A stretch of 64,000 nucleotides of DNA from positions 640,001 to 704,000 of the forward strand of contig CAVRCI010000013.1 in the NCBI GenBank assembly GCA_963719495.1, given 5' to 3'. Numbering within the stretch: position 1 is the stretch's first letter; each line of letters starts with the position of its first letter. Below the pieces are notes generated by a model. That model saw nothing but the letters and a program-made list of their open reading frames with translations, was not told the DNA's origin and ran no database searches. Origin of the DNA: an uncultured Verrucomicrobiae bacterium. GTDB lineage: Bacteria > Verrucomicrobiota > Verrucomicrobiia > Chthoniobacterales > JAATET01. Made by a program: the position numbers and the translations under genes. Positions 7,541 through 64,000 of the stretch are shown in pieces.

Positions 7541-7653
7541 AGATGCATTGAAACCCGCCCGGTGTGGCTGGAGTCTGGCTCGACCTGAATAGGATTCGTG
7601 TCATCCGGCGGACCGAAAGGGGGTGGCTTTCAAACCAATCGAAGCTAAATTAC

Positions 7654-7983
7654 ATGACGATGCTGCAACAACGCGACGAGCAGCGAAGGCAAACGCGCCT
7701 CGAGCTTTTCGACGCGACCCGGCGAACACTTTTTGCCGAGCTTCGTGCCCGGCTCCCCCGCGGGACGGTGGTATGGATCTTTGGCTCGTTGGCTCGACGA
7801 GGAGTCTTCAACGCCGCTTCCGACGTCGACATCGCTCTGGAATGTGAGCCAGCGGGGTCGAGTTGTTTTCGCCTGAGTTCCGAGTTGGACGAAGCTTTTG
7901 GCCGCCCCGTCGATGTGGTGCTGCTGAATGAAAGTCGGCTGGCCGCTCAAATCCAAAGCGCCGGAGAAAAATGGACGCTATAG
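7654..7983 (+). CDS. Minimal nucleotidyltransferase (MNT) antitoxin
   Basis: FGSLAR...SDVDIA motif. Confidence 0.85.
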   Translation: MTMLQQRDEQRRQTRLELFDATRRTLFAELRARLPRGTVVWIFGSLARRGVFNAASDVDIALECEPAGSSCFRLSSELDEAFGRPVDVVLLNESRLAAQIQSAGEKWTL

Positions 7984-8453
7984 GCTTGGCCACGCTGCAT
8001 CGGGAAATGCAGGAGGATGTGCGCGTGATGCACGACGCGTTCGATCTTGCGACGGAGCGTTTTTCCCACGCTGGAGCGATGGGCTTGGAGTCGACGGCGC
8101 ATCATTTGTGCCGGTTCTACAACGCGTGCGAACAAATGGCTTTGCGAGTGGCGAAGGCATTCGAAAATCACATCGATGACGACCGAGGATGGCACACCGC
8201 TCTCCTCACGCGGATGAGCCTGGAGATCGGAGGAATTCGCCCGGCCCTGATCCCGGTGGATCTCAAACCCGATCTCCAAGAGTTGAAAGGGTTTCGACAC
8301 GCCTTCGTTCATGCTTACGAGTTGCGGTTGGACGAAGAAAAGCTGCGATTGCTGATCCAATACGCCGGCCGGGTGAATGCGCGGTTGGATGAAATGATCA
8401 GAGTCTTCGCGGATCGTGCTGTCGAAGACGCAGATCCGGATTCAACATCGTAG
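7971..8453 (+). CDS. HEPN (HepT-like) RNase toxin
   Basis: FRHAFVHAY (Rx4HxY); overlaps MNT. Confidence 0.85.
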   Translation: MDAIGLATLHREMQEDVRVMHDAFDLATERFSHAGAMGLESTAHHLCRFYNACEQMALRVAKAFENHIDDDRGWHTALLTRMSLEIGGIRPALIPVDLKPDLQELKGFRHAFVHAYELRLDEEKLRLLIQYAGRVNARLDEMIRVFADRAVEDADPDSTS

Positions 8454-8502
8454 AAGTCGAGTGAACGAGTAGCTAATAATAGTAACGAGCAACCAACAAC
8501 TC

Positions 8503-8646
8503 ACATCCGCGAAGCTCGCGAAGCTCCTCCCCGGCGCGGATGAAATCATGAATTCCGCGATGTTCCTTGGGACCAACCCGGGCTTGACGCGGGAGATGCT
8601 CGAATCCGAGATCGCGACGATTCGGAGCTTCGTGAGGAGCTTCTGA
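8503..8646 (+). pseudogene. 3' remnant of RfbH-like (DegT family) sugar-modifying gene
   Basis: Translates LLPGADEIMNSAMFLGTNPGLTREMLESEIATIRSFVRSF*, resembling the RfbH C-terminus. Confidence 0.5.
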
Positions 8647-8876
8647 TTCTCGCGCTGAGGCTGATACAAATGCGGATGAGGGGACCACAATTAGGTTAGC
8701 TAAAAATGCATTCCGAATAACGGAAACGAATGGAAAGAATCCTCTCTGCGTCTCAGCGCCTCTGCGGGAAAATCATTCGGAAATAAGCCCTCGCCGCTCG
8801 CCTCGGCCACCACAGCTGCGCTCCTTTCCACCTGATCGTCCATTGAAATGCGGCAAGACTCCGACTATCTTCATCC

Positions 8877-9071
8877 ATGACTTTTAAGGCAGTCATTCAC
8901 CCCTCTGAAGATGGCGGCTTTTGGGCGGAGGTTCCCGCTCTTCCAGGATGTGTTTCCCAAGGGGAATCCATGGAGGAACTTCGCTTTAACATCCAGGAAG
9001 CTGTCGAGCTATGGCTTGAAGCGGGATCACCCGAAGAGACGGAGGGTCAGATCCTGGAACTTGCGATTTGA
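8877..9071 (+). CDS. hicB: HicB family antitoxin
   Basis: DGGFWAEVPALPGCVSQGES. Confidence 0.9.
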   Translation: MTFKAVIHPSEDGGFWAEVPALPGCVSQGESMEELRFNIQEAVELWLEAGSPEETEGQILELAI

Positions 9072-9276
9072 AGCAGGTTACGGGCAGGCAGCTTGCCAGA
9101 TCTGTCGAGAAACGCGGATGGATCCTCTCGCGAGTCAAAAGCAGTCACCACGTTTTCATAAAAGCTGGACGACCGGAACGAATCGTTATCCCGATCCACG
9201 GCAATCGGCCCTTAAGCTTGGCCTTCTCAAATCCCTAATGAAGATCGCCGCTCTCCAAGAGAGCGGCATCAAATGA
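9068..9276 (+). pseudogene. hicA: HicA toxin, frameshifted near 9210
   Basis: MKQVTGRQL..GW..RVKSSHH..IPIHGN continues in another frame as LKLGLLKSLMK. Confidence 0.8.
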
Positions 9277-9293
9277 CCGTAACGAGCCGCTAG

Positions 9294-10890
9294 CAGCCTG
9301 TCGGACTTACAAGAGCGACAAAATCCAAGAAACCTGTCAGACAGGGAGGATGGCAGTGAGATACGTCAACGTGGATCATGAGACCCCGCTACTTTTACCG
9401 CCGGACCTACGGGACTGGGTTCCGGCAGGGCACATGGTTCATTTCGTGATGGACGCGGTAGGGGCGTTGAATCTTGGGGCGGCAAAGAGGAACGAAAGGG
9501 GGACGGGATCGGCGCAGTATCCGCCGTCGATGATGCTGGGGTTGCTGATTTACAGCTACGCGACGGGCACATTTGGGAGTCGGCGCATTGAAACGCTCAC
9601 GCACGAGAATGTGGCCGTGCGCTACCTGTGTGCCGGACACCATCCTGACCACGACTCGATCTGCAAATTCCGCCGAGAGAACGCGGAACTGCTCAGCAGT
9701 TGCTTTCATCAGGTTCTTGAACTGGCGGCAGGATCAGGAGTGTTGAAGGTGGGAGATTTGACCGTCTCGCTGGACGGCACCAAGCTTCTGGCCAACGCGA
9801 GTCGCCACAGCGCGATGAGTCACGGACGGATCGAAGAGCAGATGACGCTGGCCAGCGAGCAAATACAGGAGCTGTTGGCCAAGGCCGAGAATGCCGACAG
9901 CACCCCGCTGGCCGACGGGCTGGAGATCCCGCAGGAAATCAAACGTCGCGAGGATCGACTGGCCAAGCTTGTACAAGCCAAGGCCGCTCTGGAAGCTCGG
10001 GTCAAAGTCCGCTTCGAGCAGGAAAGCACGGCCCACGCCGAAAAGCTCGCCACCCGCGCACAAAGCGAGCAGAGCACCGGTCGCAAAGCACGTGGCAAGG
10101 CACCTGAACCGCCCACCGAAGGCCCCCGTCCCAAGGACCAATATAACTTCACCGATCCCGAGAGCCGGATTATGAAAGACAAAAGCAGCTTCGCGCAGTG
10201 CTACAACGCGCAGGCCGCCGTGGATGTCGACACCATGCTCATCGTCGGAGCCCATCTCACCGACGCGCCCAACGACAAGCAACAACTCCAACCCGGAGTG
10301 GAGTCCGTGAGTCCGGTCGTCGGCAGCGTCAGCCAAGTGCTCGTCGACAGTGGCTACTACAGCCAGGAAGCGGTTGCGACCGTGGAAGCCCGAGACGGGA
10401 ACCCGAAAGTTTACGCCGCGCAAAAGCGCCAGCCCCACGGGCGCACAATTGCTGATCTGGAACTCCGAGCCGACCCGCCCGCACCGCCACCCGATGCTCC
10501 GCCTACCGAAATCATGGCCCACCGACTCACCACCGCGACTGGGCGCGAACTTTACGCCCTGCGCAAACAAACCGTCGAACCCGCCTTCGGCATTATCAAA
10601 GAAGCCATGGGATTCCGACGCCTGCTCCTGCGTGGGAAGGAAAAAGCCGCCTTGGAATGGTCATTAGTCACCACCGCCTACAACCTCAAACGCCTTTTCG
10701 GACTCGGGATGCAGATCGCAAGGGCATAAGGAGCCCGCCATCTCGCTTTTCACACCCGCCGGCAGAGGCCGTCAACGACACCGACAGCTTCGTTCCCGTC
10801 ATTGGACTTTCCGGTCCGCTCGCCAACGGCCAACCCAAACCTACCCCAAAAATCCCACGTCAACCCGCTGGCTCCAAGTCCGACAGGCTG
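9294..10890 (+). mobile_element. IS1182 family insertion sequence
   Basis: 15-bp IRs CAGCCTGTCGGACTT/AAGTCCGACAGGCTG with CTAG on both sides. Confidence 0.9.
9350..10729 (+). CDS. IS1182 family transposase
   Basis: LLLPPDLRDWVP, DGTK, TDPESRIM, VDSGY, RKQTVEPAFG. Confidence 0.92.
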   Translation: MAVRYVNVDHETPLLLPPDLRDWVPAGHMVHFVMDAVGALNLGAAKRNERGTGSAQYPPSMMLGLLIYSYATGTFGSRRIETLTHENVAVRYLCAGHHPDHDSICKFRRENAELLSSCFHQVLELAAGSGVLKVGDLTVSLDGTKLLANASRHSAMSHGRIEEQMTLASEQIQELLAKAENADSTPLADGLEIPQEIKRREDRLAKLVQAKAALEARVKVRFEQESTAHAEKLATRAQSEQSTGRKARGKAPEPPTEGPRPKDQYNFTDPESRIMKDKSSFAQCYNAQAAVDVDTMLIVGAHLTDAPNDKQQLQPGVESVSPVVGSVSQVLVDSGYYSQEAVATVEARDGNPKVYAAQKRQPHGRTIADLELRADPPAPPPDAPPTEIMAHRLTTATGRELYALRKQTVEPAFGIIKEAMGFRRLLLRGKEKAALEWSLVTTAYNLKRLFGLGMQIARA

Positions 10891-11060
10891 CTAGCAACCC
10901 GCCACGAGCGACTCTCAACCATTTCCTCCGTGCCGGTAGCAGCACGGGAACTCGCGCAAGCCGAGCTTACGACACAGCCTACAAGGCAACGCGCAGAGGG
11001 TGAAGCTACACTGTTTTCCTTCCGCGTTGATTTTTCCGCGAAAACCTCGATCCTCAGGAG

Positions 11061-11360
11061 ATGAATGAGATGGGCAGTCTCCCTGCCGAGCGCCTGCAAA
11101 AGGCAACCGTCGATCCGCGGGTTCGGTTTGGTGTCAAAGGCCTCTCGGTCTTCGGCTCCCGGCGACGTGGTGGAGCGCAGGTGGCAAGCGATCTCGACCT
11201 GCTCGTCGAGTTTGATCGACCGATCGGTCTGCTTGCCTTCAATCAATTGGAATCCGAGTTGAGAGAACTCACGGGATGCCGGGTCGACCTGGTCATGCGC
11301 TCAGCCCTCAAACCCAGCCTCGGAGCCCGGATTCTCGCGGAGGCGATTCCGGTTCCGTGA
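11061..11360 (+). CDS. MNT antitoxin
   Basis: VFGS...SDLDLLVEF; paralog of 15567. Confidence 0.85.
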   Translation: MNEMGSLPAERLQKATVDPRVRFGVKGLSVFGSRRRGGAQVASDLDLLVEFDRPIGLLAFNQLESELRELTGCRVDLVMRSALKPSLGARILAEAIPVP

Positions 11361-11410
11361 CGGAGAGGGATCATCGAGACGACTTAGAAGATATTTTTGC
11401 GCACGCCTCG
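11357..11410 (+). pseudogene. Truncated DUF86/HEPN 5' stub
   Basis: VTERDHRDDLEDIFAHA matches the start of 15863; cut off by the convergent VapC. Confidence 0.65.
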
Positions 11411-11415
11411 AACCC

Positions 11416-11844
11416 TCAGTCGAGCGGATTGACCCAATTCAGCCCGGGGAATCGTCCAAAATCGGTGTCTGTCGAGTTCAGAGTGTATCCGGTCTCGATT
11501 GCCAGAGCAGCCAAGTGAGCATCGGTCGTGAGATTGCCCCCAAGCTCGATCGCGATGAGTAGCGAACTCAGAGTTCGGAAATGGTTGGTTGCCGGGTTGA
11601 GGACAAACACGTGAGGTTGGTCCAGCCACTCCTGAACACGTTCGGCTGCAGCGGTCGGAGAAAGTGGATTCGCGAAAATTCGGGGCTGGGTCGTGATTCG
11701 GACGAATCCCAGGATGACAACCCACGGCAGCGCGATTCCTTCGGTCCCATTCAGGCAGCCTTCCCACCATAACCGAGCCGGATCGTGGGATGGGGCGCTC
11801 ACGTTATGTGCGTAAACGAGAAGATTGATATCCGGCAGAATCAT
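11416..11844 (-). CDS. vapC: VapC PIN-domain toxin
   Basis: MILPDINLLVYA, TDAHLAALA, STDTDF. Confidence 0.9.
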   Translation of the reverse strand: MILPDINLLVYAHNVSAPSHDPARLWWEGCLNGTEGIALPWVVILGFVRITTQPRIFANPLSPTAAAERVQEWLDQPHVFVLNPATNHFRTLSSLLIAIELGGNLTTDAHLAALAIETGYTLNSTDTDFGRFPGLNWVNPLD

Positions 11845-12104
11845 TTCCCCAATGCCTTTACGGAATACTCAGCGGACTCGAGTTCATCGTTGAGTTGATT
11901 CAGACGATTCCAATCGAGTCCTGGACTGACACCAAAGTCATGCGGTCGGACAACCACCTTCCGCCTTGGCTCGCTTGAAAAGTCGGCGTTCAAACCCCGC
12001 CGAATCGCGGAGTTGACGATTTTCTTGAACGACGTCCCAGTGACTGCCGATTGTTTCTGCAGAATCACCGCCAAATCATCTTCCAACGTAAGGGTCGTTC
12101 GCAT
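11841..12104 (-). CDS. VapB-type antitoxin
   Basis: MRTTLTLEDD RHH-like start; 4-bp overlap with PIN gene. Confidence 0.85.
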   Translation of the reverse strand: MRTTLTLEDDLAVILQKQSAVTGTSFKKIVNSAIRRGLNADFSSEPRRKVVVRPHDFGVSPGLDWNRLNQLNDELESAEYSVKALGK

Positions 12105-12639
12105 GAAAGCATCATGGCATCATCCAAAGTGATGTCAATGCATCAAGTGATGTTTGAAGGGTTGAAGTGCTGAAAGATTGAGTGGTCAAGAGCGGAGGGT
12201 TTGCCTCCGGAGAAAATTCATTGTGACTGGTGACGGGTGACCAATAACCAATAACCAATAACTGTATCCCAGCCCTCCGCGCCTCAGCACCTCTGCGGGA
12301 TAAAAAGCATCAGCATTCAATACAGGAACTCGCGCAACCGAAGGCTCGGGAGAGCCGAAGATAGACGAAAAGCCCGAAGGGTGACCGAGCCGGGTTGCGA
12401 GGGAATCAAAGGCGCGGAGGCGCAAAGGTTGATACAAATGCGGATGAGAAAAAGCTGAAAGAAAAGAACAGGGGAAATCAAAGGAAGCTAAACTTTAAAA
12501 AGCGTCTCAGCGCGATCAAGCCCAGTCAGCTAAAATTTTCTCCCTACTAAGTAACTCCCACGGCCGCAACGGAACTCTTGGGACGATGGACGGCAAATCC
12601 CGGGCACGCTGAGTCACCTATTTCAATTTTCCACCAACC

Positions 12640-13158
12640 ATGCGTGACGAAACTGATCTCCGGAAGCTCGAGGCATTTCTCCGGGAGCTCGGGAATGCGG
12701 TGACGAGCCCGGGCCGGATCTATCTCACGGGTGGAGGAACCGCCGTGTTGCACGGTTGGCGAGGGATGACGATCGACGTTGCTTTGAAGGCCGACCCCGA
12801 GCCGAACGGACTCTTTGAGGCGATCGCGAGGCTGAAAGACAGTCTGAGTTTGAACGTCGAACTCGCTTCGCCGGAAGATTTCATTCCCCGGCTTCCGGGA
12901 TGGGAAGACCGAAGTCTTTTCATCGCGCGTCACAGGAAAATCGATTTGTTCCATTACGATCTGTATTCGCAAGCGCTGTCCAAGCTTGAGCGCTCCCACG
13001 CCCGGGACGAGCTGGACGTGAGGGCGATGGTTGATCGCGGCCTCGTTGACAAATCGCGTCTCTGGGAGTTGTTTGAAGTGATCGAGTCGGGTCTCCTGCG
13101 CTATCCTGCCGTTGACGGTGCCGGTTTCCGAACGCGCGTCGCTGATTTTTGCCGATGA
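12640..13158 (+). CDS. DUF6036-like nucleotidyltransferase
   Basis: IYLTGGGTAVLHGWR..TIDV, SQALSKLER. Confidence 0.7.
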   Translation: MRDETDLRKLEAFLRELGNAVTSPGRIYLTGGGTAVLHGWRGMTIDVALKADPEPNGLFEAIARLKDSLSLNVELASPEDFIPRLPGWEDRSLFIARHRKIDLFHYDLYSQALSKLERSHARDELDVRAMVDRGLVDKSRLWELFEVIESGLLRYPAVDGAGFRTRVADFCR

Positions 13159-13442
13159 TGATTCTGTCCGAAGATCTTGAGAGACTTCCTGGGTGGGATT
13201 TGATCCGCCCGGGCCTCGCCGACGCGAAGGCAGAGCGAGTCTCGCCGGAAGCCTGTCTGGTTTGGATCGCTGCTCCCCGGCTGCGCGCTGCCGGTTTATT
13301 GCCTGAGTCCAAGGTTCCGATCATCGATCCGGAGCGGACCCTTTATGGATTACTGCGCGCCCAAGGTGGGGATGCCTATCCGGCCTACCAAAGTCTGCTC
13401 CGTCGTCTATCGAAGTTCGTGCGCGCACTCGGGTCAGTGTGA
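13155..13442 (+). CDS. Small partner protein of the nucleotidyltransferase
   Basis: Coupled ORF (LPGWDLI..GL.D). Confidence 0.6.
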   Translation: MMILSEDLERLPGWDLIRPGLADAKAERVSPEACLVWIAAPRLRAAGLLPESKVPIIDPERTLYGLLRAQGGDAYPAYQSLLRRLSKFVRALGSV

Positions 13443-14044: not shown

Positions 14045-14431
14045 ATGAATGAAATTCGATTTCGATTTGAGCGGCTGGACGCCTGGCAAATGGCCCGTCA
14101 GTTGAACCGTTCGATCTACCGACTGACCAAGACCTTTCCCAAAGACGAAATGTTTGCGCTCACATCTCAGCTGCGTCGGGCGTCCGTCTCGGTTAGTTCA
14201 AATATCGCGGAGGGATCAGGCCGCAACTCTGACAAAGACTTCGCGCACTTTCTCGAAATCGCTTACGGGTCGCTCATGGAAACGGTTTCCCAGTGTTTTC
14301 TCGCTCTCGATGAAGGATATTTAACGCAGAAAGACTTCGATTCGCTCGCGGGTGATGCAGACAAACTCGCGGGGAAGATCGTCGCGCTCTCCAAGTCACT
14401 CGGTCGTTCAGCCCGAATTCACCAGAAATAA
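14045..14431 (+). CDS. Four helix bundle protein (23S rRNA IVP-like)
   Basis: FERLDAWQ, FPKDEMFALTSQLRRASVSVSSNIAEGSGR. Confidence 0.92.
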   Translation: MNEIRFRFERLDAWQMARQLNRSIYRLTKTFPKDEMFALTSQLRRASVSVSSNIAEGSGRNSDKDFAHFLEIAYGSLMETVSQCFLALDEGYLTQKDFDSLAGDADKLAGKIVALSKSLGRSARIHQK

Positions 14432-14640
14432 GCCCTCGACTCTCGACGCTCGACTCCTCCGACCTCAGAAATAAGCCCTCGACTCTCGACGCTCGTCCCT
14501 CGACTCCTGCGACCTCAGAAATAAGCCCTCGACGCTCGACGCTCGTCCCTCGACTCCTCCGACCTCAGAAATAAGCCCTCGACTCTCGACGCTCGTCCCT
14601 CGACTCCTGCGACCTCAGAAATAAGCCCTCGATGCTCGTC
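14423..14640 (+). repeat. 50-bp tandem repeat (about 4.3 units) built from CTCGACN heptamers
   Basis: GACCTCAGAA recurs at 14461, 14511, 14561, 14611. Confidence 0.95.
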
Positions 14641-14691: not shown

Positions 14692-15009
14692 ATGAACCAT
14701 CTTCTCGAGAGCAAGCAGGTGGAGATCGTCGATGCGTGCGAGCAATTCGACGTTGAGAGACTTGCAGCATTCGGATCGGTCGTGAGGGACGATTTCCGAG
14801 CCGGTGCGAGTGATGTTGACTTTCTCGTTCGATTTCGAGCGCCCGGTGAACCGGGTTATTCAGACCGATATTTGGATTTTGCCGAGACGTTGGAGCGACA
14901 CTTGGGACATTCGGTCGATCTGTTGACCGAGAGATCCCTCCGGAACCCTTACCTCCGGCAAAGGATCACCGAGGAAGCCCAGGTCGTCTATGAATCGCAA
15001 AGTTCTTAA
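14692..15009 (+). CDS. MNT antitoxin
   Basis: FGSVVRDDF...SDVDFLV. Confidence 0.88.
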   Translation: MNHLLESKQVEIVDACEQFDVERLAAFGSVVRDDFRAGASDVDFLVRFRAPGEPGYSDRYLDFAETLERHLGHSVDLLTERSLRNPYLRQRITEEAQVVYESQSS

Positions 15010-15330
15010 GCGGCTGGAAGATGCCCGGGTGGCGTGCCTAAAAATCCAGAACTTCACCAATTGTCAGGATTTCGCAGCTTTCCAGAGCAGTGATTTAGTC
15101 CGGGCAGCCGTAGAGCGGCAACTAGAGATTATTGGGGAAGCGCTCGGCAAAGCCCTAGCTGACGCGCCCCAACTCGAGGAATCCATCCCAGAGATTCACC
15201 GGGCATCGGAATCCGTAATCGCCTGATTCACGGATACGACAGCGTAGATGATGAAATCGTCTGGGATGTGGTCAGGCTCAAACTAATCCCGTTTCTTGAC
15301 CGACTTGGACTCCTTCTGGATGGCAATTGA
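14990..15330 (+). pseudogene. DUF86/HepT toxin, frameshift near 15204
   Basis: AVERQLEIIGEA, then IGIRNRLIHGYD in another frame. Confidence 0.85.
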
Positions 15331-15566
15331 ACGAATGCCGACCGTTACCCGCTCGCCCGTAACTCATCGCCCTTCCCTCCGCGCCTCAGCGCCTCTGCGG
15401 GATAAAAGTATCAGTATCAATACAGGGACTCGCGCAGCTGCAACGGATGTGCAGCAACGGCCAGGCCAGCAACCCTAAAGCCGTAGAGGAAAGTTGGCTT
15501 CTAGTTTTCCCGGAGTTTCCCACCTTCCCCGTTGATCTTTCCAGAGAGAACCACGAAGTTTCGGTC

Positions 15567-15866
15567 ATGAGAGAAAACGGAGGGTTCCCTGTCGAGCGAC
15601 TGCGCTTGGCAGCCACCGGACTGCGGGATCAATATGGAATCAAGCAGCTTTCGGTATTTGGTTCCCGTCGACGTGGCGAAGGGCACGAGGAGAGCGATCT
15701 CGATCTGCTCGTGGAGTTCGACCGCCCGATCGGTCTGCTTGCCTTCAATCAGTTGGAATTCGAGCTGAGTGAACTCACGGGATGCCGGGTCGACCTGGTC
15801 ATGCGTTCGGCTCTCAAACCGAGCTTGGGAGCGAGGATTCTCGCGGACGCATTATCAATCTCGTGA
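15567..15866 (+). CDS. MNT antitoxin
   Basis: VFGSRRRGE...SDLDLLVEF. Confidence 0.88.
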   Translation: MRENGGFPVERLRLAATGLRDQYGIKQLSVFGSRRRGEGHEESDLDLLVEFDRPIGLLAFNQLEFELSELTGCRVDLVMRSALKPSLGARILADALSIS

Positions 15867-16210
15867 GGGGCAGGGTCCACCGAGACTCCTTGGAAGACAT
15901 TGTTGCGCACGCGAATCGAGCCGGAGACTTCATTGTCGGAATGGATTTCACCGCCTTCCGAGTTGACGAGAAAACCAACTTTGCGGTCGTTCGCTGCCTT
16001 GAAATCATCGGCGAAGCCTCGAAAAGAATCCCGGAGCAGATCCGGGCGCGCTATCCCGCTATCCCGTGGATAGCGATGGCCGGGATGCGCGATAAATCGA
16101 CTCACGATTATTTTGGTGTCGATTTGGAAGTCGTCTGGCACACGGTTGCCGTTGAGTTGCCTCCGTTGATCGTGGCAATGGAATCTGTCCTCGCCGACGA
16201 AATCTCCTGA
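15863..16210 (+). CDS. DUF86/HepT toxin
   Basis: LEIIGEA, GMRDKSTHDYFGVD. Confidence 0.88.
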   Translation: MRGRVHRDSLEDIVAHANRAGDFIVGMDFTAFRVDEKTNFAVVRCLEIIGEASKRIPEQIRARYPAIPWIAMAGMRDKSTHDYFGVDLEVVWHTVAVELPPLIVAMESVLADEIS

Positions 16211-16462
16211 CTCGTATTCAGTAACCCGTAACACACGGCTACTCCCTCAGCGGTTGCTGGCCTGGCCGTTGCTGCGCATCCGTTGCAGCTGCGGGATAAA
16301 AAGCATCGGTATCCATCCAGGAACTCGCGCGAGCCGAGCTTGCGAGACAGTCTGCAAGGCAACGCGCACAGGGTGCAGATGGTGATCGGTTTCCCTCGAG
16401 GCGAGCTGTTTCCACGGCTCGATACGCTCGACTTCCGAGGTGAATTGGCTTAGAAGTAACTT

Positions 16463-16783
16463 ATGCATCCGGCAATTCAGCAGATATTGCAGAAGCGATC
16501 GGGATCGGTTGCGAGCCTTTGTTCTAAGCTTTCGGTGGAAAGGCTGGGGCTCTTCGGATCGGCCTGCGGAGGGACATTCGACCCGAACGAAAGCGACTTG
16601 GATTTCCTGGTTGATTTTAAGAATGCCGATGGCCCGGGAATCGCGGACCGCTATCTCTCGCTGGTCGAAGGCCTGGAGAGCATTTTCGACCGAGAGGCGG
16701 ATGTGATCACGCGCCGATCAATCAGGAACCCCGTCTTTCGCCGGGTGACTGAGGAGACCGAGACGCTCCTGTATGAAGCGTGA
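16463..16783 (+). CDS. MNT antitoxin
   Basis: LFGSA...SDLDFLV. Confidence 0.88.
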   Translation: MHPAIQQILQKRSGSVASLCSKLSVERLGLFGSACGGTFDPNESDLDFLVDFKNADGPGIADRYLSLVEGLESIFDREADVITRRSIRNPVFRRVTEETETLLYEA

Positions 16784-17117
16784 AACTGAAAAGCTCTTGA
16801 TTGATATCCAGATCGCTCTGAGAGATTTGGAAGATTTCACGGCAGGAGTCGATTTAGCGGGATATCGAGCCGACGCCATGCGAAGAGCTGCCGTTGAGCG
16901 GAAATTCGAGATTGTCGGAGAGGCTTGCAATGGCTTGAAAGCCGAGGATTCTGGGACATTCGACAGGATTTCTTACGCGGTCCAGATCATTGGATTCCGC
17001 AACCGTTTGATCCACGGCTACGATTCGGTCGACGATGCGATCGTCTGGGACGTCATTCAAACCAGACTTCCTCTCCTCAAGGCGGAGGTCGGCGACTTGT
17101 TGGCGAGCGACGGGTGA
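16773..17117 (+). CDS. DUF86/HepT toxin
   Basis: AVERKFEIVGEA, FRNRLIHGYD. Confidence 0.9.
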   Translation: MKRETEKLLIDIQIALRDLEDFTAGVDLAGYRADAMRRAAVERKFEIVGEACNGLKAEDSGTFDRISYAVQIIGFRNRLIHGYDSVDDAIVWDVIQTRLPLLKAEVGDLLASDG

Positions 17118-17646
17118 GTAGCTAGTGGCTGGTGGCGCGTTGGATTTACCTCTCCAGCCGTAACCCACTACCCATAACTCACCGCCATTCCCTCAGCGCC
17201 TCCGCGGGATAAAAATATCGATACAGGGACTCGCGCAACCGAAGGCTCCGGAGAGCCGATGATAGACGAAAAGCCCGAAGGGTGACCGAGCCGGGTTGCG
17301 AGGGAATCAAAGACGCAGCGACGCAGAGAATGATACAAATGCGGATAAAGAAGCTGAATCTTAAAAAGAAACCCCTCCGCGTCTCTGCGGTTGCTGGCCT
17401 GGCCGTTGCTGCGCCTCCGCGCCTCTGCGGGAGAAATTCCGAATCATGCAACTGATAGGGTGAGGCTCGCGCCCAATCAGCACGGTCGCTTCCTCAATAA
17501 GAGCGAGTCGTTCGTCAACCAGAAGCGGCAACCGACGACCTCTGATTTACGATTTCCGAACCCCGACGAAGATCCCCAGGAAATCGATCCCGATCTCCGC
17601 TTACTTCGCGTTGCCAACAGGGAGCGTCCATCGTAGTTCTTTGAAT

Positions 17647-17946
17647 ATGCAGACCGTTGATTTTCAGGATCAATTCGCCGGTCCATGTCGGCGGCATCTG
17701 GTGAAACGATTGCAGCTCTTCGGATCAGTTTCGCGGGGACAGGGGACACCGGGGAGCGATTTGGACCTCCTGGTCCAGTTTCACGAAATGTCCGCCGCGG
17801 ATTACTCGAGTCATTATTTTGCTCTACTCCATGAGATCGAGGACAAATTGGACCGGCGCATTGACTTGCTGACACCCGCCGGGCTCAAGCGACGGTTGCT
17901 CAAGGATAATATCGAGAAAGAGGCGATTCTTTTGTATGAAGATTGA
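17647..17946 (+). CDS. MNT antitoxin
   Basis: LFGSVSRG...SDLDLLV. Confidence 0.85.
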   Translation: MQTVDFQDQFAGPCRRHLVKRLQLFGSVSRGQGTPGSDLDLLVQFHEMSAADYSSHYFALLHEIEDKLDRRIDLLTPAGLKRRLLKDNIEKEAILLYED

Positions 17947-18283
17947 AGTTCGCGAGGATCTCGAAGCGATCATCGAGCACGGGAGTCAAATCGAGGAGTT
18001 CGTCTCAGAACTGACCTTTGAGACGTAGGCGAATGATCCCAAGACTCGATTGGCGGTTGAACGAGCGTTTGAAATCATTGGGGAAGCCCTCAATCGAATT
18101 GCCAAATTGGAGCCTGAGGTTCTGGAACGCGTTACGGACCATCGGAAAATTATCTCATTTCGAAATATTCTCGCGCATTGCTATGACAGCATAGAAGACA
18201 AGATCGTCTGGGGAATCGTCGAGGACGCGCTGCCGCAGCTCATGGCCCAGGTCCGCTGCCTCCTTCCGAAAGGACCAGCCTGA
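17936..18283 (+). pseudogene. DUF86/HepT toxin with in-frame TAG at 18026
   Basis: MKIEVREDLE...T*ANDPKTRLAVERAFEIIGEA...FRNILAH. Confidence 0.85.
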
Positions 18284-52894: not shown

Positions 52895-53913
52895 ATGAGT
52901 GAATCAATAATTTTTGGCGGCGAAGGCTTCATTGGGAGGCATCTGGCCGAGCGGTTGCTCGGGGAGGTCAAAAGTCCAAGGTCGAAGGTCGATAATGAAT
53001 CGCCGGGGCGATTGGAAGTAGGTTCGGTCGTGTCGGTGGATTTGGCGGAGTCGGATCGGCCGCAGGGCGCGGCTCGTCAATTTGTTCAGCATGACGTCCG
53101 GGAACCCCTTTCGACCCTCGACGCTCGACTCCCACCGCTATCTATAACTTCGCTGCCGTTCATCGGACGCCGGGGCATCCGGAGCGGGAGTATTTCGAGA
53201 CGAACCTGCTTGGCGCGGAGAATGTGTGTGCGTTTGCCCGGCAGAACGAGGTGCGGACGATTGTCTTCACGAGTTCGATTGCGCCCTACGGGGCCTCGGA
53301 GGTGATCAAGACGGAGGACACGCTACCTTCCCCGAACACGGCGTATGGAATCTCGAAGCTGGTGGCGGAGCACATTCACCGGACTTGGCAGGCGGAGCGC
53401 TCGGACGAACGTCGGCTCGTGATCGTACGGCCGGGGGTGGTCTTTGGTGCGGGCGAGGGCGGAAACGTGACGCGACTCGCAGGGGCGATGGCGCGGAAGC
53501 GATTTGTGTATCCGGGACGTAAGGACACGATCAAGGCCTGCATCTACGTGAAGGACCTGGCGCGGCTGCTGATCGAAATGGCAGCCCGACCCGAGCCGGG
53601 CGTGTTTCTCTATAACCTCACGTATGAGCCCGCCCCGACGATCGAGGAGATTTGCGGCGCGATCTCGCGGGTGACCGGTGCGCCGGAACCGAGCCTGGTC
53701 GTGCCGGGCGCGGCTCTGCGAGCGGTCGCCGCGGCTTTGACCCCGCTCCAAGGTCTCTGTGGCGGGTTTCACCCGGATCGCGTGAAGAAGCTGATGATCT
53801 CCAACAATATCTCCGGCAAGCGACTGTTGGAGGATGGGTATGAGCTGCAATTCCGGCTTGAAGAAGCCCTGCGCGATTGGTGGATGGACTGTGGGGAGAA
53901 GGGGCTCGTTTAG
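52895..53913 (+). pseudogene. NAD-dependent epimerase/dehydratase, frameshift near 53110-53140
   Basis: GGEGFIG and FTSS..Y...YGISK are in different frames. Confidence 0.85.
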
Positions 53914-54274
53914 CGGCAATAAGGCGCAAGAAGCTGAATAGGGAATTCGTAATACCAATGCGGAACTCGCGCGGAGGCGCAGAGACGCAGAGGATGATAT
54001 AAATGCGGATGAGGAAGAGCTGAAAACAAAGAACGGATGAAATCCAAGGAAGCTGAATCTTTAAAAAATTCCCTCCGCGTCTCAGCGGTTGCTGGCCTGG
54101 CCGTTGCTGCGCATCCGTTGCAGCTGCGGGATAAAAGTATCAATGCAGGAACTCGCGCAGAGGCGCCGAGTGGGGGGCGGGAGTCGGAAAGCGGAGGCCA
54201 GTGGTTCAGAGGCCAGTGGGTCGGTAGGTGGTTCGGTGGTTCGGTAAACACGGTGGGGTTGCGTCGATCGTGAA

Positions 54275-54940
54275 ATGATGGATACTCCAGAGGATGAACG
54301 AACCCGCGCGCGAGATCGAGGAATTGCTCCAGAGACGGCCGCCGCCGAACTCCGAGCAATTCTGGAGGCAGGTGGAGAAGGCTCGGGAATACTCGCCCAA
54401 TCCCGGGGACTCGTCCGATGGGCGGGTTCGCGAGGAACCCTCCTCGGAGCTGGCTTCGACGTAGGCGAATTTCGCGATGGCGGTCTGGTGCATCGGATCG
54501 CGTTTGATGAGAGCGCGGGCATTGTTTACAAACTGACGTATGGTGCGGGGTTCGGCCGGACGTGCCGTGATCCGCGGCGAGGTTTGGCTCCGGCGACGCC
54601 TCTGGAGTATCTCGACCGCTGGTCGATTCACAATCGGTTGTTTGGGCGAATCACGTGGATCGTCGGAGTGCTGAATCCTGAGGGAGACGATTTTCCGCGA
54701 GTGGTGGTGGGGCAGACTGCCATTCGGGGCGAGTTGCCAAGCGTCGAGCGCGTCGCGGCATTCATGGTGCACGCTGGTTTTACCCCGCTCGGCTGGGGTC
54801 AATACTCCTGGATTGCTAGCAAACAGAGAATAGCGATCTTCGATGCCCGTCCGGCGAACTTCGTCGGGGTCGAGGAGCTGGCAGTTCCTTTCGATCTTAT
54901 TCCGGTTCGATCTTGGGATTCGTGGGCGGAGGTTCGGTAG
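54275..54940 (+). CDS. Polyvalent-protein-type kinase domain protein
   Basis: GLVHRI, VYKLT, ATPLEYLDRW..HN.LFG, DARPAN, PFD. Confidence 0.65.
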   Translation: MMDTPEDERTRARDRGIAPETAAAELRAILEAGGEGSGILAQSRGLVRWAGSRGTLLGAGFDVGEFRDGGLVHRIAFDESAGIVYKLTYGAGFGRTCRDPRRGLAPATPLEYLDRWSIHNRLFGRITWIVGVLNPEGDDFPRVVVGQTAIRGELPSVERVAAFMVHAGFTPLGWGQYSWIASKQRIAIFDARPANFVGVEELAVPFDLIPVRSWDSWAEVR

Positions 54941-56063: not shown

Positions 56064-56495
56064 TTACCAGGTCAGCAGCGAGAGGCCGTCGACGCGGTCA
56101 AAGTGGCTGTCGCGTTGGGCCAGCGGCATGGAGCATTCGAGGGCGACGGCTGCGATCCAGATGTCGTTTTCGGGGATGGGCGTTCCGCGGGACTCGAGCG
56201 TGGCGGCGATCTGAGCATCGGCGTGCTGGGAGCGCGCGAGGCAGCCTTGAGCGTAGCGAAAGCCCGGAGGGCGACACGAGCGGGAGCGAGGGAGGCAACG
56301 TCGGTCTGTAGAAATTTCGAGCTGCGCTTTGGTCTTCTCGGGAACGCTGGATTTGAGGACGCCTTTGTAGAGCTCGCCCAAGGCGGTGAGCGGCAGGAAG
56401 AGCGGCTCGGCCGGAGGAGCTTTCTCGGCGAGGTTAATCCGGCCGCGTAGGTGCTCGATGACGACGCTGGTGTCGAGCAGGATGCCCTGGAGCAT
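56064..56495 (-). pseudogene. VapC PIN toxin disrupted by a mini-element (56214-56298)
   Basis: ILLDTSVV...GTPIPENDIWIAA...RDSHF. Confidence 0.85.
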
Positions 56496-56731
56496 TACGA
56501 TTCGAGGCGGCGGCCACCGAGCATCGCGGCCTCGAAGGAGTGTCCGTCTTGTTCGGTGAGGACTCCGTGAGTCTGACGAAGAAGCGCCTGACGGTTTTTC
56601 TGGTCGGCCTCGCTGAGGCCGTGGACGTAGCGGGCCACCTCGACGAGTTTGGGCGTCGGCAGACTTTGGAGGTCTTTCAGGATGGATTCGATCACGTTCA
56701 CAGAAATTAATTGTAGCATTGGAAGCAGCAA
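56495..56731 (-). CDS. Putative antitoxin (start uncertain)
   Basis: Coupled upstream of VapC. Confidence 0.6.
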   Translation of the reverse strand: MLLPMLQLISVNVIESILKDLQSLPTPKLVEVARYVHGLSEADQKNRQALLRQTHGVLTEQDGHSFEAAMLGGRRLES

Positions 56732-57140: not shown

Positions 57141-57395
57141 ATGAAAGCTACGTATTCCGTTTCCCAGGCGCAGGCGGCACTTCCGCGCATCTTGAAGGAA
57201 GCAGAAGATGGTCTCATCGCGGTCAGCCGTCGCGATGTGACGGTGGCTTTCGTCGTTTCCCGCGATCGGATGGAGGCGATATTGGAAACAATGGAAATCC
57301 TGGCCAATCCGACGGCCATGAAACAGATTGAAGATTTCGAAGCAGGAAAGTTGAGTTTTCGCGATTTTTCCGCTCTCGATGACTTGGACGAATGA
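57141..57395 (+). CDS. Phd/YefM antitoxin
   Basis: YSVSQAQAALP, ETMEILANP. Confidence 0.85.
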   Translation: MKATYSVSQAQAALPRILKEAEDGLIAVSRRDVTVAFVVSRDRMEAILETMEILANPTAMKQIEDFEAGKLSFRDFSALDDLDE

Positions 57396-57667
57396 TTCGT
57401 CTTTCACGTCAGGTCGAAGATTTCGTTCGATGTCTCGCGCCAGTTCCGCGCCGCAAACTGAGATTGGCGATTCGCGATCTTGGTGAGAAATCCGCGGACG
57501 TGAAAAGCCTCGAGGACCGTCTCTCTGGTTTTCAGCGACTGCGGTGTGGCAGCTATCGGGTGATCTTTGCAACGCGAGTCGTCGACGGTATCCCGGTCCA
57601 TCATTGCCTCTTTGCAGAACATCGTTCGATTGTTTACGAGGCATTTGAACGAATGATGGGAGAGTGA
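57392..57667 (+). CDS. RelE/ParE toxin
   Basis: DVKSLE..LSGF.RLRCGSYRVIF. Confidence 0.85.
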   Translation: MIRLSRQVEDFVRCLAPVPRRKLRLAIRDLGEKSADVKSLEDRLSGFQRLRCGSYRVIFATRVVDGIPVHHCLFAEHRSIVYEAFERMMGE

Positions 57668-58042
57668 GGTTTGGGGAAAGCAGCTCTGCTACGGAGGCTG
57701 GTGGCGCGTTGGATTTGCCCCGCTACCCGCTACCCATGACTCGTAACCCGCTACCCGCATCTTATCGCCATTCCCTCTGCGTCCCTGCGACTCTGCGGGA
57801 TAAAAGCATCAATACAGGAACTCGCGCGGAGGCGCAGAGACGCAGAGGATGATATAAATGCGGATGAGGAAGAACTGCGGGAATATGAATACGGTTTTTG
57901 AACATAAGATCGCAAAGTTCGCGAAGAGATGCAGAGGGGGATTTCTGAGGTTGCAAGCCTTCCTTCCCGCAACGGCAACAGGACCGAACCGGGATCATCG
58001 GTTTGACTGTCAGCCGCGACTGTTCCAGATTATCCAAAAACG

Positions 58043-58294
58043 ATGAAGACGAAATTCACTTTTTGGCAAGAGGCTGACGGAAAATATTTGGGATACTTGA
58101 ATGACTATCCAGATCACTGGACTCAGGGCGACGACATGCAGGATCTAAGAGAACAGCTCGTTGATCTCTTTTCGACTTTCTCTTCCGAGAGCTTGCCCGG
58201 GATTCGAAGCTCGAGATCGCTTGAAACGCCGGGATTTGATCACAAACATCGAAGCGGCTGGCTGCCTTCTTTTACGGCACGGTTCCCGCCATGA
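58043..58294 (+). CDS. hicB: HicB-like antitoxin, C-terminus probably frameshifted
   Basis: LGYLNDYPDHWTQG..L; reads through into hicA. Confidence 0.65.
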   Translation: MKTKFTFWQEADGKYLGYLNDYPDHWTQGDDMQDLREQLVDLFSTFSSESLPGIRSSRSLETPGFDHKHRSGWLPSFTARFPP

Positions 58295-58403
58295 TATTTA
58301 TCACAACCCAGCGACAGGGGTATCTCAGCCGGTTCCACGTCACCGAGAAATCAATGAGATCCTTGCAAAGAAGATCATCAGAGATCTGACGAAATTTGAG
58401 TAG
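58221..58403 (+). CDS. hicA: HicA toxin
   Basis: MKRRDLI...RHGSRHDIY...VPRHREI. Confidence 0.85.
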   Translation: MKRRDLITNIEAAGCLLLRHGSRHDIYHNPATGVSQPVPRHREINEILAKKIIRDLTKFE

Positions 58404-61074: not shown

Positions 61075-61540
61075 ATGCGTATCTACATCGAGACAACGAT
61101 TCCGAGCTACTTGACCGCCAACAGGGCCCGCGAAGTCGTCCAAATTGCTCTCCAACAGACAACGAAGGACTGGTGGTAGACCGAACGAGAGAAACACGGT
61201 TTGGATACTTCCTTGATCACTCTTCAGGAAGCGGGCGGTGGGGATTCTGAGGCTGCTCAACGCAGACTTGGTAGTTCTCAAGGGGATTCCGCTATTGGAG
61301 ATCACGCCTGAGGTCGAAGGAATGACATCTTCAATTGTGGATTCAAGGATATTGCCGCCCACAGCCGAGCGTGACGCTGCCGACGTCGCTGTTGCTACCT
61401 ACCATGAACTGGATATTATCCTGACTTGGGACTGTCGTCACATTGCCAACGCAACCATCCGTAAGCCTCTACAGAAGTTGATCGAATCGCTCGGCTACGA
61501 GCTTCCAATTATTTGCACGCCAGAGGAACTAATCTCATGA
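61075..61540 (+). pseudogene. PIN domain gene (TAG at 61177, frameshift near 61270)
   Basis: IYIETTIPSYL...LTWDCRHIAN...ICTPEEL. Confidence 0.8.
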
Positions 61541-61779
61541 TCACCCAGGACTTCCCGTCAATTGCAGACGAGACAATGAAAGAAGTGTGGGAAATTAAGG
61601 ATTCTCTTTCACGAAGGTATAATCATGACGTTGGTTTACTTTTCAAGGGTCTGTACACAGAGCAGGCCTCCGACAGTGAGAACACGGTCAATTTGAAACG
61701 GAAAAATGCGGCCCAACGAAGTGCTGCATCTCGCGCAGAGGCGCAGGCGCGGAGGGGGTGGCTGGTGACGGGTAGCTGA
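61537..61779 (+). CDS. Small partner protein of PIN gene
   Basis: DETMKEVWEIKD.LS..Y.HD; 4-bp overlap. Confidence 0.6.
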   Translation: MITQDFPSIADETMKEVWEIKDSLSRRYNHDVGLLFKGLYTEQASDSENTVNLKRKNAAQRSAASRAEAQARRGWLVTGS

Positions 61780-61840
61780 TAACCCGTGACTCTTGGCTCG
61801 TGACTCGCCTTCGCCACCGCAGCGGAGTTGCCTCGCGCTC

Positions 61841-62122
61841 TCACTCCTGGAGGCGCGATTGAAACACTTCGTAGACCCACCTCCGACTTTCGAGGAAGAC
61901 ACAGGTGATGGTGCGCGTTCCTTCAATGAAATCATACTGAAAGATCACCCGATAGCTGCCGACTCGACGGCGAAAGTAACCGTCGAGTTCGTCAACTAGC
62001 GGTCTGATGTCTCCTCGTTCTTCGCTCAGGCCTTTGATCGCCAATCGGATGGCGTGCCTTGGTTTGGGTGGGAGGCGACGGAGAGTCTCGAGCACGTCCT
62101 GCTGAACTCGGATCCTGATCAT
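61841..62122 (-). CDS. RelE/ParE toxin
   Basis: GDIRPL..LDGYFRRRVGSYRVIF; paralog of 57392. Confidence 0.85.
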   Translation of the reverse strand: MIRIRVQQDVLETLRRLPPKPRHAIRLAIKGLSEERGDIRPLVDELDGYFRRRVGSYRVIFQYDFIEGTRTITCVFLESRRWVYEVFQSRLQE

Positions 62123-62367
62123 ATGTCATCGAGGGCGGAGACGTCGTGGTAAATGGCCTGACCGGCTTCGTGAGCGCGAATCGCGGTCATGGCTGCGGGA
62201 CTACTCAGGATTTCCATTGTCTCAGAAATGGCCTCCATTCGGTCGATCGAGATCAGAACCGCGACCGCTTTTCCTTGGTTGGTGATGGTGACCGGGTGAT
62301 CCAACGACTCTTTGACGACGGCGGAAAAACGCTGTTGGGCAGTTTTGATGGTGTAGGAATCGGCCAT
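62119..62367 (-). CDS. Phd/YefM antitoxin
   Basis: YTIKTAQQRFS, VTITNQGK, ETMEILSSP. Confidence 0.85.
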   Translation of the reverse strand: MADSYTIKTAQQRFSAVVKESLDHPVTITNQGKAVAVLISIDRMEAISETMEILSSPAAMTAIRAHEAGQAIYHDVSALDDI

Positions 62368-62612
62368 GACACAAAATTACACCCTTTTCTCTGGAAAAGG
62401 GTGATGAAATTCTCGATTCAACTTTTAGAGTTTCCGAGTTTTTAGGTTCTGAGCATCGAGCCGCGGGAGCGGCTGAGGCAGACTGCGTCGTCGAAGGGTC
62501 GTCGAAGACTCGGTCATTCGTATTGACGCATTTTGAGCTTTCGACGTCGGATGATCGTTGGTGGCGGGAATGCGAAATCCGGGTTCTTCGCTCCCTTCTG
62601 TCGAAGATCGCA

Positions 62613-63020
62613 TTGATTTTGTCGCGGGTTTGCCAAGTTGTGACCGGTCCGGTGGCGCTCAGTTTTCTGAGCGCCATTTTTTATTTTTCCCTGCGGGCTG
62701 CGCCGCATCTTGGGGAGATTGCCTGGCTGCCGGTTTAGCTCACCGCGTGGGCGGTTTCTCGCTCGGGTGAAGATTTACGGACGGCAGTGCCGTTTCTGCT
62801 GCTCGATGAGACGACGGGGCTGTTGTCGCGGTCCGGGCGGCGCGTGATCGTTTCAGCGGTGGTGCTCGTTGCCTTGGTGGTCCTGATCGAAGGCGCGCAG
62901 TATTTTGTTCCCGGTCGCACGGCGTCGAACCACGACGTAGGATGGGGGTCGCTTGGCGGATCGTCTGATTGTCTCTTGGGTGTTTGCTGCGGAAACTTGG
63001 CGGGCGCGTTTATCCGTTGA
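62613..63020 (+). pseudogene. Full-length VanZ family gene with TAG at 62736 (5' fragments at about 41447, 44187, 58597)
   Basis: LRTAVPF...IEGAQYFVPGRTAS..DVGWG. Confidence 0.7.
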
Positions 63021-63132
63021 GGACGAGCGAAGTTTAGCCGCAAGCACCGGAGTCGTGGGACGGCTCGGGGCAGACTGCATTGGCTCTGCAATGCAGCCCG
63101 CAGGGCGAGACGAGCGGGAGCGAGCGAGTCAA

Positions 63133-63888
63133 CACCGGACGCCGGGGCACCCTGAGCACGAGCATTCCGAGACAAACCTGCGCGGAGCGGAGAATGCGTG
63201 TGCCTTCGCCCGGGAGCACGATGTGCGGACGATTGTGTTCAGGAGTTCGATCGCGCCTTACGGGGCCTCGGAGCCGCTCAAAACCGAGGACACTTTGCCG
63301 CTGCCGAATACGGCTGACGGGATTTCGAAGCTGGTGGCGGAGCACATTCACCGGACGTGGCAGGCGGGGCGACCGGACGAGCGTCGGCTCGTGATCGTGC
63401 GGCCGGGGGTGGTCTTTGGTGCTGGCGAGGGCGGGAACGTCACGAGATTGGCGGGGTCGATGGCGCGGAAGCGATTTGTGTATCTGGTGCGCAAGGACAC
63501 GATCAAGGCGTGCATCTACGTGAAGGACGTGGCGCGCCTGTTGGCTGAAATGGCCGCGAGGACCGAGCCGGGCGTGTTTTTGTATAATCTGACTTACGAG
63601 CCCGCTCCGACGATCGAGGGGATTTGCGGGGCAATCTCGCGAGTGACGGGTGCGCCGCTGCCGAAGCTGGTTGTGCCCGGCTCGATGTTGCGAGCGGTCG
63701 CAGCGGTCCTTAAGCCGCTGCAGGGTCTTCTCGGAGAGGGCTTTCATCCTGACCGGGTGAAGAAGCTCATGGTCTCGAACAACATGGCGGGCCGGAAGCT
63801 CCTGGATGACGGCTATCGACTGGAGTTCAGCCTCGAGGAAGCACTCCGCGACTGGCAGCAGGACTGCGTGGGTGGTGATCTAGTTTAG
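63133..63888 (+). pseudogene. 5'-truncated NAD-epimerase paralog, fused behind a mini-element
   Basis: HRTPGHPE...; catalytic YGISK changed to DGISK. Confidence 0.8.
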
Positions 63889-64000
63889 CGGGCAAAGGGG
63901 AGCGGGGCCGTCCCGTCCCCGAGCTGGAATTGAATTCGCGAGGACGGATGCCCTTACTCCCGGCGCGAAAGATGCGGACGGTATACGGTCGGTTTCGTTC

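Follow-up and report, generated by a model that had tools for sequence, protein, structure and literature searches.

The window analysed here is a 64,000-nucleotide stretch of contig C13 of an uncultured Verrucomicrobiae bacterium (G000:C13:640,001-704,000; source genome G000, 4.54 Mb in 16 contigs). A Pfam search of the window identified an exosortase-linked polysaccharide cluster in which an O-antigen ligase-like gene, a tetratricopeptide repeat protein, a GDP-mannose dehydratase, an exosortase and an EpsI-like gene are followed by a glycan core, WecG, an epimerase and VanZ pieces. Two arrays of toxin-antitoxin (TA) pairs and other small genes are set into this cluster around the repeat-free glycan core (23.4-36.5 kb), array 1 at ~7.6-23 kb and array 2 at ~39-64 kb. 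They form a real, ordered cassette array for which we found no published description.

Spacers in both arrays are rich in periodic 7-9-mer repeats. Relative to 30 second-order Markov simulations, array 1 has 10 period-7 and 8 period-8 runs where 1.1 and 1.3 are expected, and array 2 has 21, 11 and 11 runs of periods 7, 8 and 9 against 1.6, 2.3 and 2.5. The core has 0, 1 and 1 (0.8, 0.8 and 1.0 expected), so the excess in the arrays and its absence from the core, both reported in a preliminary description of this DNA, are borne out. That description found repeats in nearly every spacer, which is somewhat strong: a perfect run of period 7-9 is present in 25/40 spacers (versus 16% of 2000 length-matched random stretches), a run or vocabulary word in 32/40 (a count without a control), and 8/40 are repeat-free. 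The AT-richness that it ascribed to the whole core holds only from ~27 to 36 kb. Genome-wide there are 314 period-7 and 107 period-8 arrays, and of 234 bins the two richest lie in the window. Of 12 TA-like matches elsewhere in the genome, none has a 7/8-mer array within 300 bp. Period-7 arrays also track GC skew genome-wide: in most contigs the G-rich strand carries their GT-rich form.

The joint and the origin of its arms

Comparing the window with itself revealed shared modules of 60-300 bp. One of them, a recurrent hairpin here called a joint, consists of (CTCYGCG)n, a linker of about 27 nt (GGATAAAAGTATC-AATACAGGRACTCG) and (CGCRGAG)n, an anatomy that we regard as established. The 7-9-mers had been proposed as the exchange sites themselves; they are part of the unit, but the unit is the larger module, built from the ends of mini-elements. 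A whole-genome pattern search of G000-G004 placed the joint at this locus only and in a single orientation (71/71 hits), with 8 copies in G000, 3 in G001, 40 in G003, 20 in G004 and none in G002. Beyond these genomes, the pattern matched 9 stretches in genome_contigs, one of which (L026) was analysed, and 0 in metagenome_contigs. On these matches the exact linker is lineage-specific.

The best-preserved joint of the window (57775..57850, + strand) folds as single-stranded DNA at -26.5 kcal/mol (z = -5.85). The 7-mer module at 57685-57770 folds no better than shuffles, so not all arms form hairpins. The linker has one length in 46/64 full joints. Its hexamer is doubled in 11 full joints, and in 6 of these the two copies are unlike (as are 48% of random linker pairs); right-only half joints retain a degenerate hexamer.

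Joint spacing in G003 is 145-245 bp where no gene intervenes, 476 bp around a GxxExxY gene and ~0.7-1.6 kb around a TA pair or glycan gene. The unit is a left arm, a payload and a right arm, and units are chained head to tail by the one conserved linker. The payload is nothing (empty units of 145-180 bp), a GxxExxY gene, a glycan gene, or a TA pair accompanied by the region upstream of it.

The GxxExxY and four-helix-bundle families are both associated with periodic repeats. In array 1 of G003 and G004, a GxxExxY gene (TIGR04256) begins right after a left arm and finishes right before a right arm; the gene itself is absent from the window. Window-type arm words flank 6/30 GxxExxY relatives from other Verrucomicrobiota on both sides, all within the 10 closest, and degenerate arms in the orientation of the element flank 25/30, versus 3/30 in the opposite orientation. 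No target duplication was seen by eye around these 30 relatives. In G000, judged by eye, the four GxxExxY genes have inverted 9-mer arms and the eight four-helix-bundle genes inverted 7/8-mer arrays; a GxxExxY gene of the joint-arm subfamily was not found there at E<=1e-30. Upstream of the window, a four-helix-bundle element with a long CCGACCTT array (G000:C13:633,300-634,120) lies at the same stop codon as a GxxExxY element with 9-mer arms in G001, G003 and G004.

Read from these sequences, the 8-mer joint arms are the inverted ends of GxxExxY nuclease-gene mini-elements and the nested 7-mer arms the ends of four-helix-bundle mini-elements, an origin that we likewise take as established. Both kinds insert just behind stop codons in operons. 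In the literature covered, largely open-access articles and their main texts, we found neither arrays of this sort described nor GxxExxY or four-helix-bundle elements bounded by arms.

Gene content, decay and insertions

About 20 TA-type pairs, mostly co-oriented with the operon, had been described between the operon genes. We found and scored 20, and 17/21 pairs lie on the + strand. They comprise nine MNT-HEPN pairs (eight distinct plus one duplicate), one DUF6036 pair, two HicBA, six PIN-type pairs, together with one PIN fragment and one orphan AbrB/MazE, and two Phd pairs. The partners previously called RelE are weakly supported (one matches ParE at E=0.054, and the other falls into no family), and the three kinases resolve into two whole Kinase-PolyVal genes and a truncated third. 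Four-helix-bundle sequences amount to one intact gene plus fragments. The two-gene operon form of type II/VII TA systems is present, with the Pfam families and overlapping stop/start codons, and five HepT-type HEPNs carry an Rx4-6H motif. The locus holds 10/12 of the genome's PF01909 (MNT) matches; PIN genes are not concentrated here (2/24 genome matches). Another MNT-HEPN pair lies just past the window end (window 64089-64605, - strand).

The preliminary description was silent on the frequent breakage of array genes and on the multiple copies of host genes. With roles set by family convention, the toxin alone is broken in 9 of the 20 pairs, the antitoxin alone in 0 and both in 2, and 9 pairs are intact. 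The bias is significant (sign test p=0.004; 0.007 with length allowed for) and may be read as an indirect sign of TA toxicity neutralised by the partner. One premature stop is common to G001 and absent in G004, which indicates that the lesions are biological. In Vibrio cholerae, addiction to integron TA cassettes is described as protecting the array from deletion (PMC13108822). By analogy, active toxins could make the units addictive and guard the repeat-rich glycan locus against deletion, and half of the toxins in G000 would since have been lost through mutation.

Features of the window (positions in the window; strand given where reported)
Position	Strand	Feature	Remarks
5273..7540	+	GDP-mannose dehydratase 5273-6325; exosortase ORF 6404-7540	Left host flank (Pfam)
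7660..8453	+	MNT-HEPN pair a	Both genes intact; 98% identical in G003
8877..9276	+	HicB, HicA	HicB intact, HicA frameshifted
9290..10895	+	Insertion sequence, presumably IS1182-type	DUF772 + DDE_Tnp_1_6; inserted at CTAG
11070..12104	both	MNT b (+) and PIN pair 11416-12104 (-)	HEPN cut to 24 aa, overrun by intact PIN pair
12273..12340	+	Joint	Spans a right arm, the linker and the beginning of a left arm; hexamer of the linker doubled
12640..13442	+	DUF6036 nucleotidyltransferase and partner	97% identical in G004 and L026
13702..13760	+	Joint
14045..14640	+	Four-helix-bundle gene (PF05635/TIGR02436, 14045-14431)	Intact; then four 50-bp copies of its CTCGAC-type arm
14692..19138	+	MNT-HEPN c 14692, d 15567, e 16463, f 17626, g 18360	Pairs c, f and g have a broken HEPN; joints at 15419, 16314, 17220
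19902..23005	+	Two EpsI-like (DUF3485) copies; UPF0175-DUF3368 pair 20441-21174	EpsI-like copies 88% alike; four-helix-bundle and DUF3368 fragments
23370..36525	+	Glycan biosynthesis core	Without repeats (Pfam)
36827..38931	+	Large broken ORF	No family match
39500..40731	+	AbrB/MazE; Kinase-PolyVal gene 40048-40731	AbrB/MazE cut off by Y1-element end
41853..42629	+	WecG/TagA glycosyltransferase	Sole whole copy out of four
42638..42880	+	Two right-only half joints, empty unit, GAGTGGC 7-mer arm	After WecG stop
42964..43714	+	MNT-HEPN pair h	HEPN with stop
43868-43935		Epimerase copy	Fragment
44523-46886		WecG copy	IS-split
44977..46463	-	ISNCY/IS1202-like element	16-bp target duplication
47282..47918	+	Antitoxin-like gene and PIN	Intact; 94% identical in G004
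47996..49218	-	Insertion sequence, presumably IS630-type	DDE_3 + HTH_32; inserted in 7-mer arm
49255..49470	+	Joint (49319)	With nested 7-mer arms
49514..50181	-	RHH-like gene and PIN	Intact; in all four genomes at 95-98%
50231-51717		ISNCY/IS1202-like element	Second copy
51990-52820		MNT-HEPN h, second copy	HEPN split by 92-bp MITE
52895..53913	+	NAD-dependent epimerase	Broken by repeat insertion
53951..54170	+	Half joint, empty unit, full joint (54142)	After epimerase stop
54278..54940	+	Kinase-PolyVal gene
55040-55830		WecG copy
56064..56701	-	Antitoxin-like gene and PIN	PIN split by MITE
57141..58403	+	Phd and RelE-like pair 57141-57667; joint 57811; HicB-HicA 58043-58403	Deletion across the HicB-HicA junction
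59002-59793		WecG copy
60406-60804		Kinase-PolyVal, third copy	Truncated
61075..62367		PIN and partner 61075-61779 (+); Phd and RelE-like pair 61841-62367 (-)	PIN broken; Phd pair intact
63133-63888		Epimerase copy	5'-truncated, 80% alike

Except for one 97% pair, the additional copies of WecG, epimerase and EpsI are as divergent (80-88% alike) as these genes are between species. The glycan core is largely non-homologous between relatives, and the counterpart of the large broken ORF in G003 and G004 is a single ORF of ~680-700 codons positioned after array 2. Tandem Repeats Finder located CCGACCTT-type 8-mer arrays between the host genes of the left flank. Scans of array 1 for sigma-70 promoters and terminators did not rise above shuffles.

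The window holds four insertion sequence (IS) transposase copies, and every IS retains its own target duplication. Two of these elements, which we take from their domains to be of the IS1182 and IS630 types, both lie at CTAG within degenerate 7-mer arms. The two ISNCY-type copies are 1,487 bp long with TGT ends and 16-bp target duplications, and fit the ISTde1 subgroup of IS1202 by duplication length (10.1101/2022.12.17.520857); the superintegron described below contains more copies of this element. A 92-bp element resembling a miniature inverted-repeat transposable element (MITE) occurs at window 13935-14030 and in about 70 places genome-wide, strongly strand-biased per contig, and is inserted in two toxin genes of the window.

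The cumulative GC-skew minimum of contig C13, an origin-type switch, falls at window ~25,088, inside the glycan core. The same switch lies within the locus in G001, G003 and G004 (at locus ~15, 11 and 10 kb) and not in G002 or G005. The 16S gene is on the G-rich strand and dnaA ~120-240 kb from the switch; counts of DnaA boxes did not place oriC.

Exchange between species and array turnover

Arrays occupy the same two places in the congeners G001, G003 and G004, and are not found there in G002 or G005. Of 14 window cassettes tested, 13 have an 89-98% DNA match in a relative (75% for the last), whereas the outer flanking genes are 66-72% identical between species and gmd 86-88%. This difference establishes recent exchange of cassettes between species. 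Three window cassettes recur in L026 at 91-97% in a different order and gene context. Comparison with the four other genomes, in which the content and neighbours of cassettes differ, supports the cassette gain, loss and exchange inferred earlier. Exchange tracts also enter host genes, the exosortase being 96% identical with that of G004.

Cassette order is reversed in 15/34 same-array pairs, and 14 of these involve G000; among G001, G003 and G004 it is collinear (0/8 pairs reversed). Together with the metagenome-type assembly and the four WecG and three epimerase copies, this concentration in one genome would suit an assembly artefact in which the stacked copies of array 2 are concatenated strain haplotypes. 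We consider that very unlikely. The same architecture is seen in G001, G003, G004 and L026, and 8/20 gene alignments to relatives are without indel. The multi-gene junctions and premature stop that the window has in common with G001, the target duplication kept by each IS, and the breakage of the extra copies, as redundancy within one genome predicts, argue for real DNA.

No shared cassette has moved between the two arrays. Across the 3003 site pairs from 78 joints (one a doubtful match), 240 agree in the left flank only, 214 in the right only and 26 in both, and the left and right flank classes are independent (p=0.145). We found no step-like break of linkage at the linker, and weak signals came from single positions to either side of it. 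The 47 homology blocks, with paralogous blocks kept in, have 94 ends. Of these, 7 fall within genes and 60 have a repeat close by in one or both genomes (in both for 33). Breakpoints had been expected inside the repeats. They lie near repeats more often than chance predicts for array DNA as a whole (0.21-0.39), but no more often than it predicts for non-genic DNA. By eye, the ends of 22 blocks are scattered over arms, linker and 7-mer runs, and a single crossover base was not resolved.

The route of turnover we infer from these patterns, and with moderate confidence we regard homologous recombination through the repeats as the best mechanism, given that there is no single crossover base, that no cassette switches arrays and that tracts run into host genes. 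The scattered ends, the fidelity of cassettes to their array and the stacked host-gene alleles 80-88% alike favour it as well. Joints that are near-identical, co-oriented and 60-300 bp long would, with the shared host genes, anchor RecA-type recombination. In this way DNA from congeners could enter the arrays, and units could be stacked or lost as loops, with no dedicated integrase required.

Several points weigh against this view. It leaves the first entry of a TA pair between the arms unexplained, and the fixed linker, doubled hexamer and half joints hint at a defined join, which would not be expected from homology alone. The 60/94 block ends near repeats are not above the non-genic chance of 0.45-0.68 per genome. 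ComEC was found in 4/5 genomes, with no match in G003, the genome with most joints. The comparison rests on five genomes, all uncultured.

Those features of the linker would suit a defined cut, and with it a dedicated system. A GxxExxY nuclease of the PD-(D/E)XK type, acting in cis or trans, might cut the arms or the linker hexamer and leave host repair to join the ends, a scheme that we hold only tentatively. Units leaving and re-entering as discrete cassettes, through circles or hairpin intermediates, are a doubtful proposition to the same degree. The arms are tied to this family, whose gene is a payload in G003 and G004. The structure predicted for its product (pLDDT 91) shows the fold of a restriction endonuclease: the best hit reaches Z 8.6, Cas4 reaches Z 7.6, and the middling hits include Cas4, Hjc and XisH. 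E27, D67 and K79 are invariant, and no solved structure matches by sequence. The regular joint spacing in G003, the order reversals, and the alternation of four-helix-bundle and GxxExxY elements at one upstream stop codon are also in keeping with such a system. Against it, linkage shows no step across the linker, no cassette switches arrays though both carry the same joint, and G000 is without this GxxExxY subfamily, its own four genes having 9-mer arms. The 30 relatives show no target duplication by eye, and the fold alone shows no activity. We therefore think it possible but rather unlikely that the arrays represent a cassette system of a new class. In such a system, periodic inverted arms would be recognised by a stand-alone GxxExxY nuclease of the PD-(D/E)XK type, which would cut at the linker hexamer and thereby capture, excise and re-order TA and glycan cargo. 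If true, such a system would diversify the cell surface beside the replication origin without a tyrosine, serine or DDE recombinase.

Looking further afield, a DUF6036 pair lies in this locus in G002 too, with neither arms nor joints. We sampled 10 other Verrucomicrobiae genomes at their HEPN genes, and two of them, G094 and G085, have dense 7/8-mer arrays in glycan loci. In G094 (L063:6200-11345), a glycosyltransferase lies on either side of three MNT-HEPN pairs and YefM-YoeB, and genes of the four-helix-bundle and GxxExxY families are close by; its array uses other 7/8-mer words and long CCGATA 6-mer runs, and the arm modules lie between, not around, the TA pairs. The window's spacer library gave 0 hits in four loci of other Verrucomicrobiae. 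The G002 and G094 arrangements would fit a passive hotspot, in which TA pairs, arm elements, MITEs and IS pile up independently behind the stop codons of a tolerant, often replaced locus, the repeats being bystanders and whole blocks travelling with the glycan locus. So would breakpoints not enriched at repeats beyond non-genic chance, the occurrence of 7/8-mer arrays genome-wide, the repeat-free spacers and the heavy decay. We nevertheless judge this improbable: the linker is locus-only and single-oriented, flanks are reassorted across it, and single cassettes have been exchanged between species while their neighbours changed.

Element ends can multiply into an oriented scaffold for the exchange of TA pairs and surface-glycan genes between species. 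That related species have swapped such units without an integron suggests that gene-cassette arrays can be built in another way. The orphan GxxExxY and four-helix-bundle families and the unexplained 7-9-mer repeats would gain a concrete consequence, and the crowding of small TA genes in polysaccharide loci a possible reason. The joint offers a short, defined substrate for direct tests of recA versus nuclease dependence.

Integrons and other repeat-bounded systems

The arrays are not an integron, although they resemble integron arrays in layout and exchange. The window contains no IntI, as the preliminary description had it, but its claim extended to any recombinase, and four IS transposase copies lie there and an IntI elsewhere in the genome, on contig C2 (425.6 bits, cut-off 265). 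This IntI, at 176.4 kb, belongs to a superintegron of ~150 kb (G000:C2:27,000-177,400) with roughly 200 homogeneous ~125-bp attC. Smaller attC clusters are found on C2 (10) and C7 (5) and one copy on C4, and 0/215 attC copies are on C13. A search of the window for attC-like sites gave one chance hit, inside a gene. In a home-made test (not IntegronFinder), paired AAC...GTT boxes enclose 1/76 joints versus 117/215 attC copies. The array is not accounted for by a canonical intI/attC. The four array-bearing genomes also encode a second IntI-like recombinase, whose score of 235-249 bits falls short of the TIGR02249 cut-off; in G000 (G000:C1:371,878-372,858) no array lies beside it.

The joints might still be atypical attC used in trans by the genome's IntI, the array being a cluster of attC sites lacking an integron-integrase (CALIN). 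The presence of IntI in G000, the hairpin folds of joints and the second IntI-like gene would allow this. We give it hardly any credence in view of the box test and the absence of attC from C13. G003, with 40 joints, has no IntI above the cut-off, and the superintegron and the arrays have only IS copies in common and no cassette. An integron-like array thus coexists with a true superintegron in one genome, with no traffic between them.

What stands of the integron-like system proposed earlier is the layout of co-oriented, site-bounded units of variable content; the absence of a fixed crossover, the conserved order in G001, G003 and G004 and the lack of array switching speak against the rest. 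Sedentary chromosomal integrons and CALINs likewise have small co-oriented units each closed by a hairpin-forming site, as well as empty units, TA cassettes and exchange between related bacteria (PMC13108822; PMC12614218). Unlike them, the arrays have no IntI/attI alongside and no R-box structure, the joint is made of two element ends, payloads include glycan host genes, the array sits inside an operon, and no fixed crossover was found.

REP/REPIN (BIME)-RAYT systems, which combine inverted arms, tandem gene-less copies and a small nuclease gene flanked by the same repeats, share all three traits with the arrays. The window arms differ in being periodic 7-9-mers, in having a PD-(D/E)XK or four-helix-bundle partner and not a HUH Y1 protein, and in carrying TA cargo. 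REPIN repeats are dispersed over the genome and flank a Y1 gene, whereas the joint is confined to one locus and its arms flank GxxExxY. The spacers do contain a separate 30-bp motif, the end of an element with a Y1 transposase that lies elsewhere, and the Y1 gene at C13:310 kb is flanked by this motif.

In ORF-bearing intervening sequences of 23S rRNA (PF05635), which RNase III excises, a long inverted repeat has a four-helix-bundle gene in its loop, as in the mini-elements here. Rfam gave 0 matches in the window, so the elements here are not in rRNA; they belong to mRNA operons, have multiplied into arrays, and are not exclusive to four-helix-bundle genes, GxxExxY and TA payloads occurring as well.

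The pdif (XerC/D) modules of Acinetobacter plasmids are integrase-less, often carry TA pairs and are shuffled by an enzyme encoded elsewhere. A dif-like site, with XerC- and XerD-binding arms about a 6-bp centre, had 0 hits in the window at <=5 mismatches, using a dif consensus, the organism's own dif not having been identified. The arrays are like pdif modules in their integrase-less units, frequent TA pairs and repeated sites (xrs: 10.1101/2022.12.17.520857), and unlike them in that the window sites are direct, periodic and much longer.

Heptameric simple sequence repeats (SSRs) of bacteria provide the last comparison. A survey of them found the regions that bear them more stable than controls, and its text makes no mention of four-helix-bundle genes (0 occurrences; PMC4692102). 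Both sets are intergenic period-7 arrays close behind an upstream ORF, but the repeats of the window, unlike the SSRs as described there, are element ends in a variable array.

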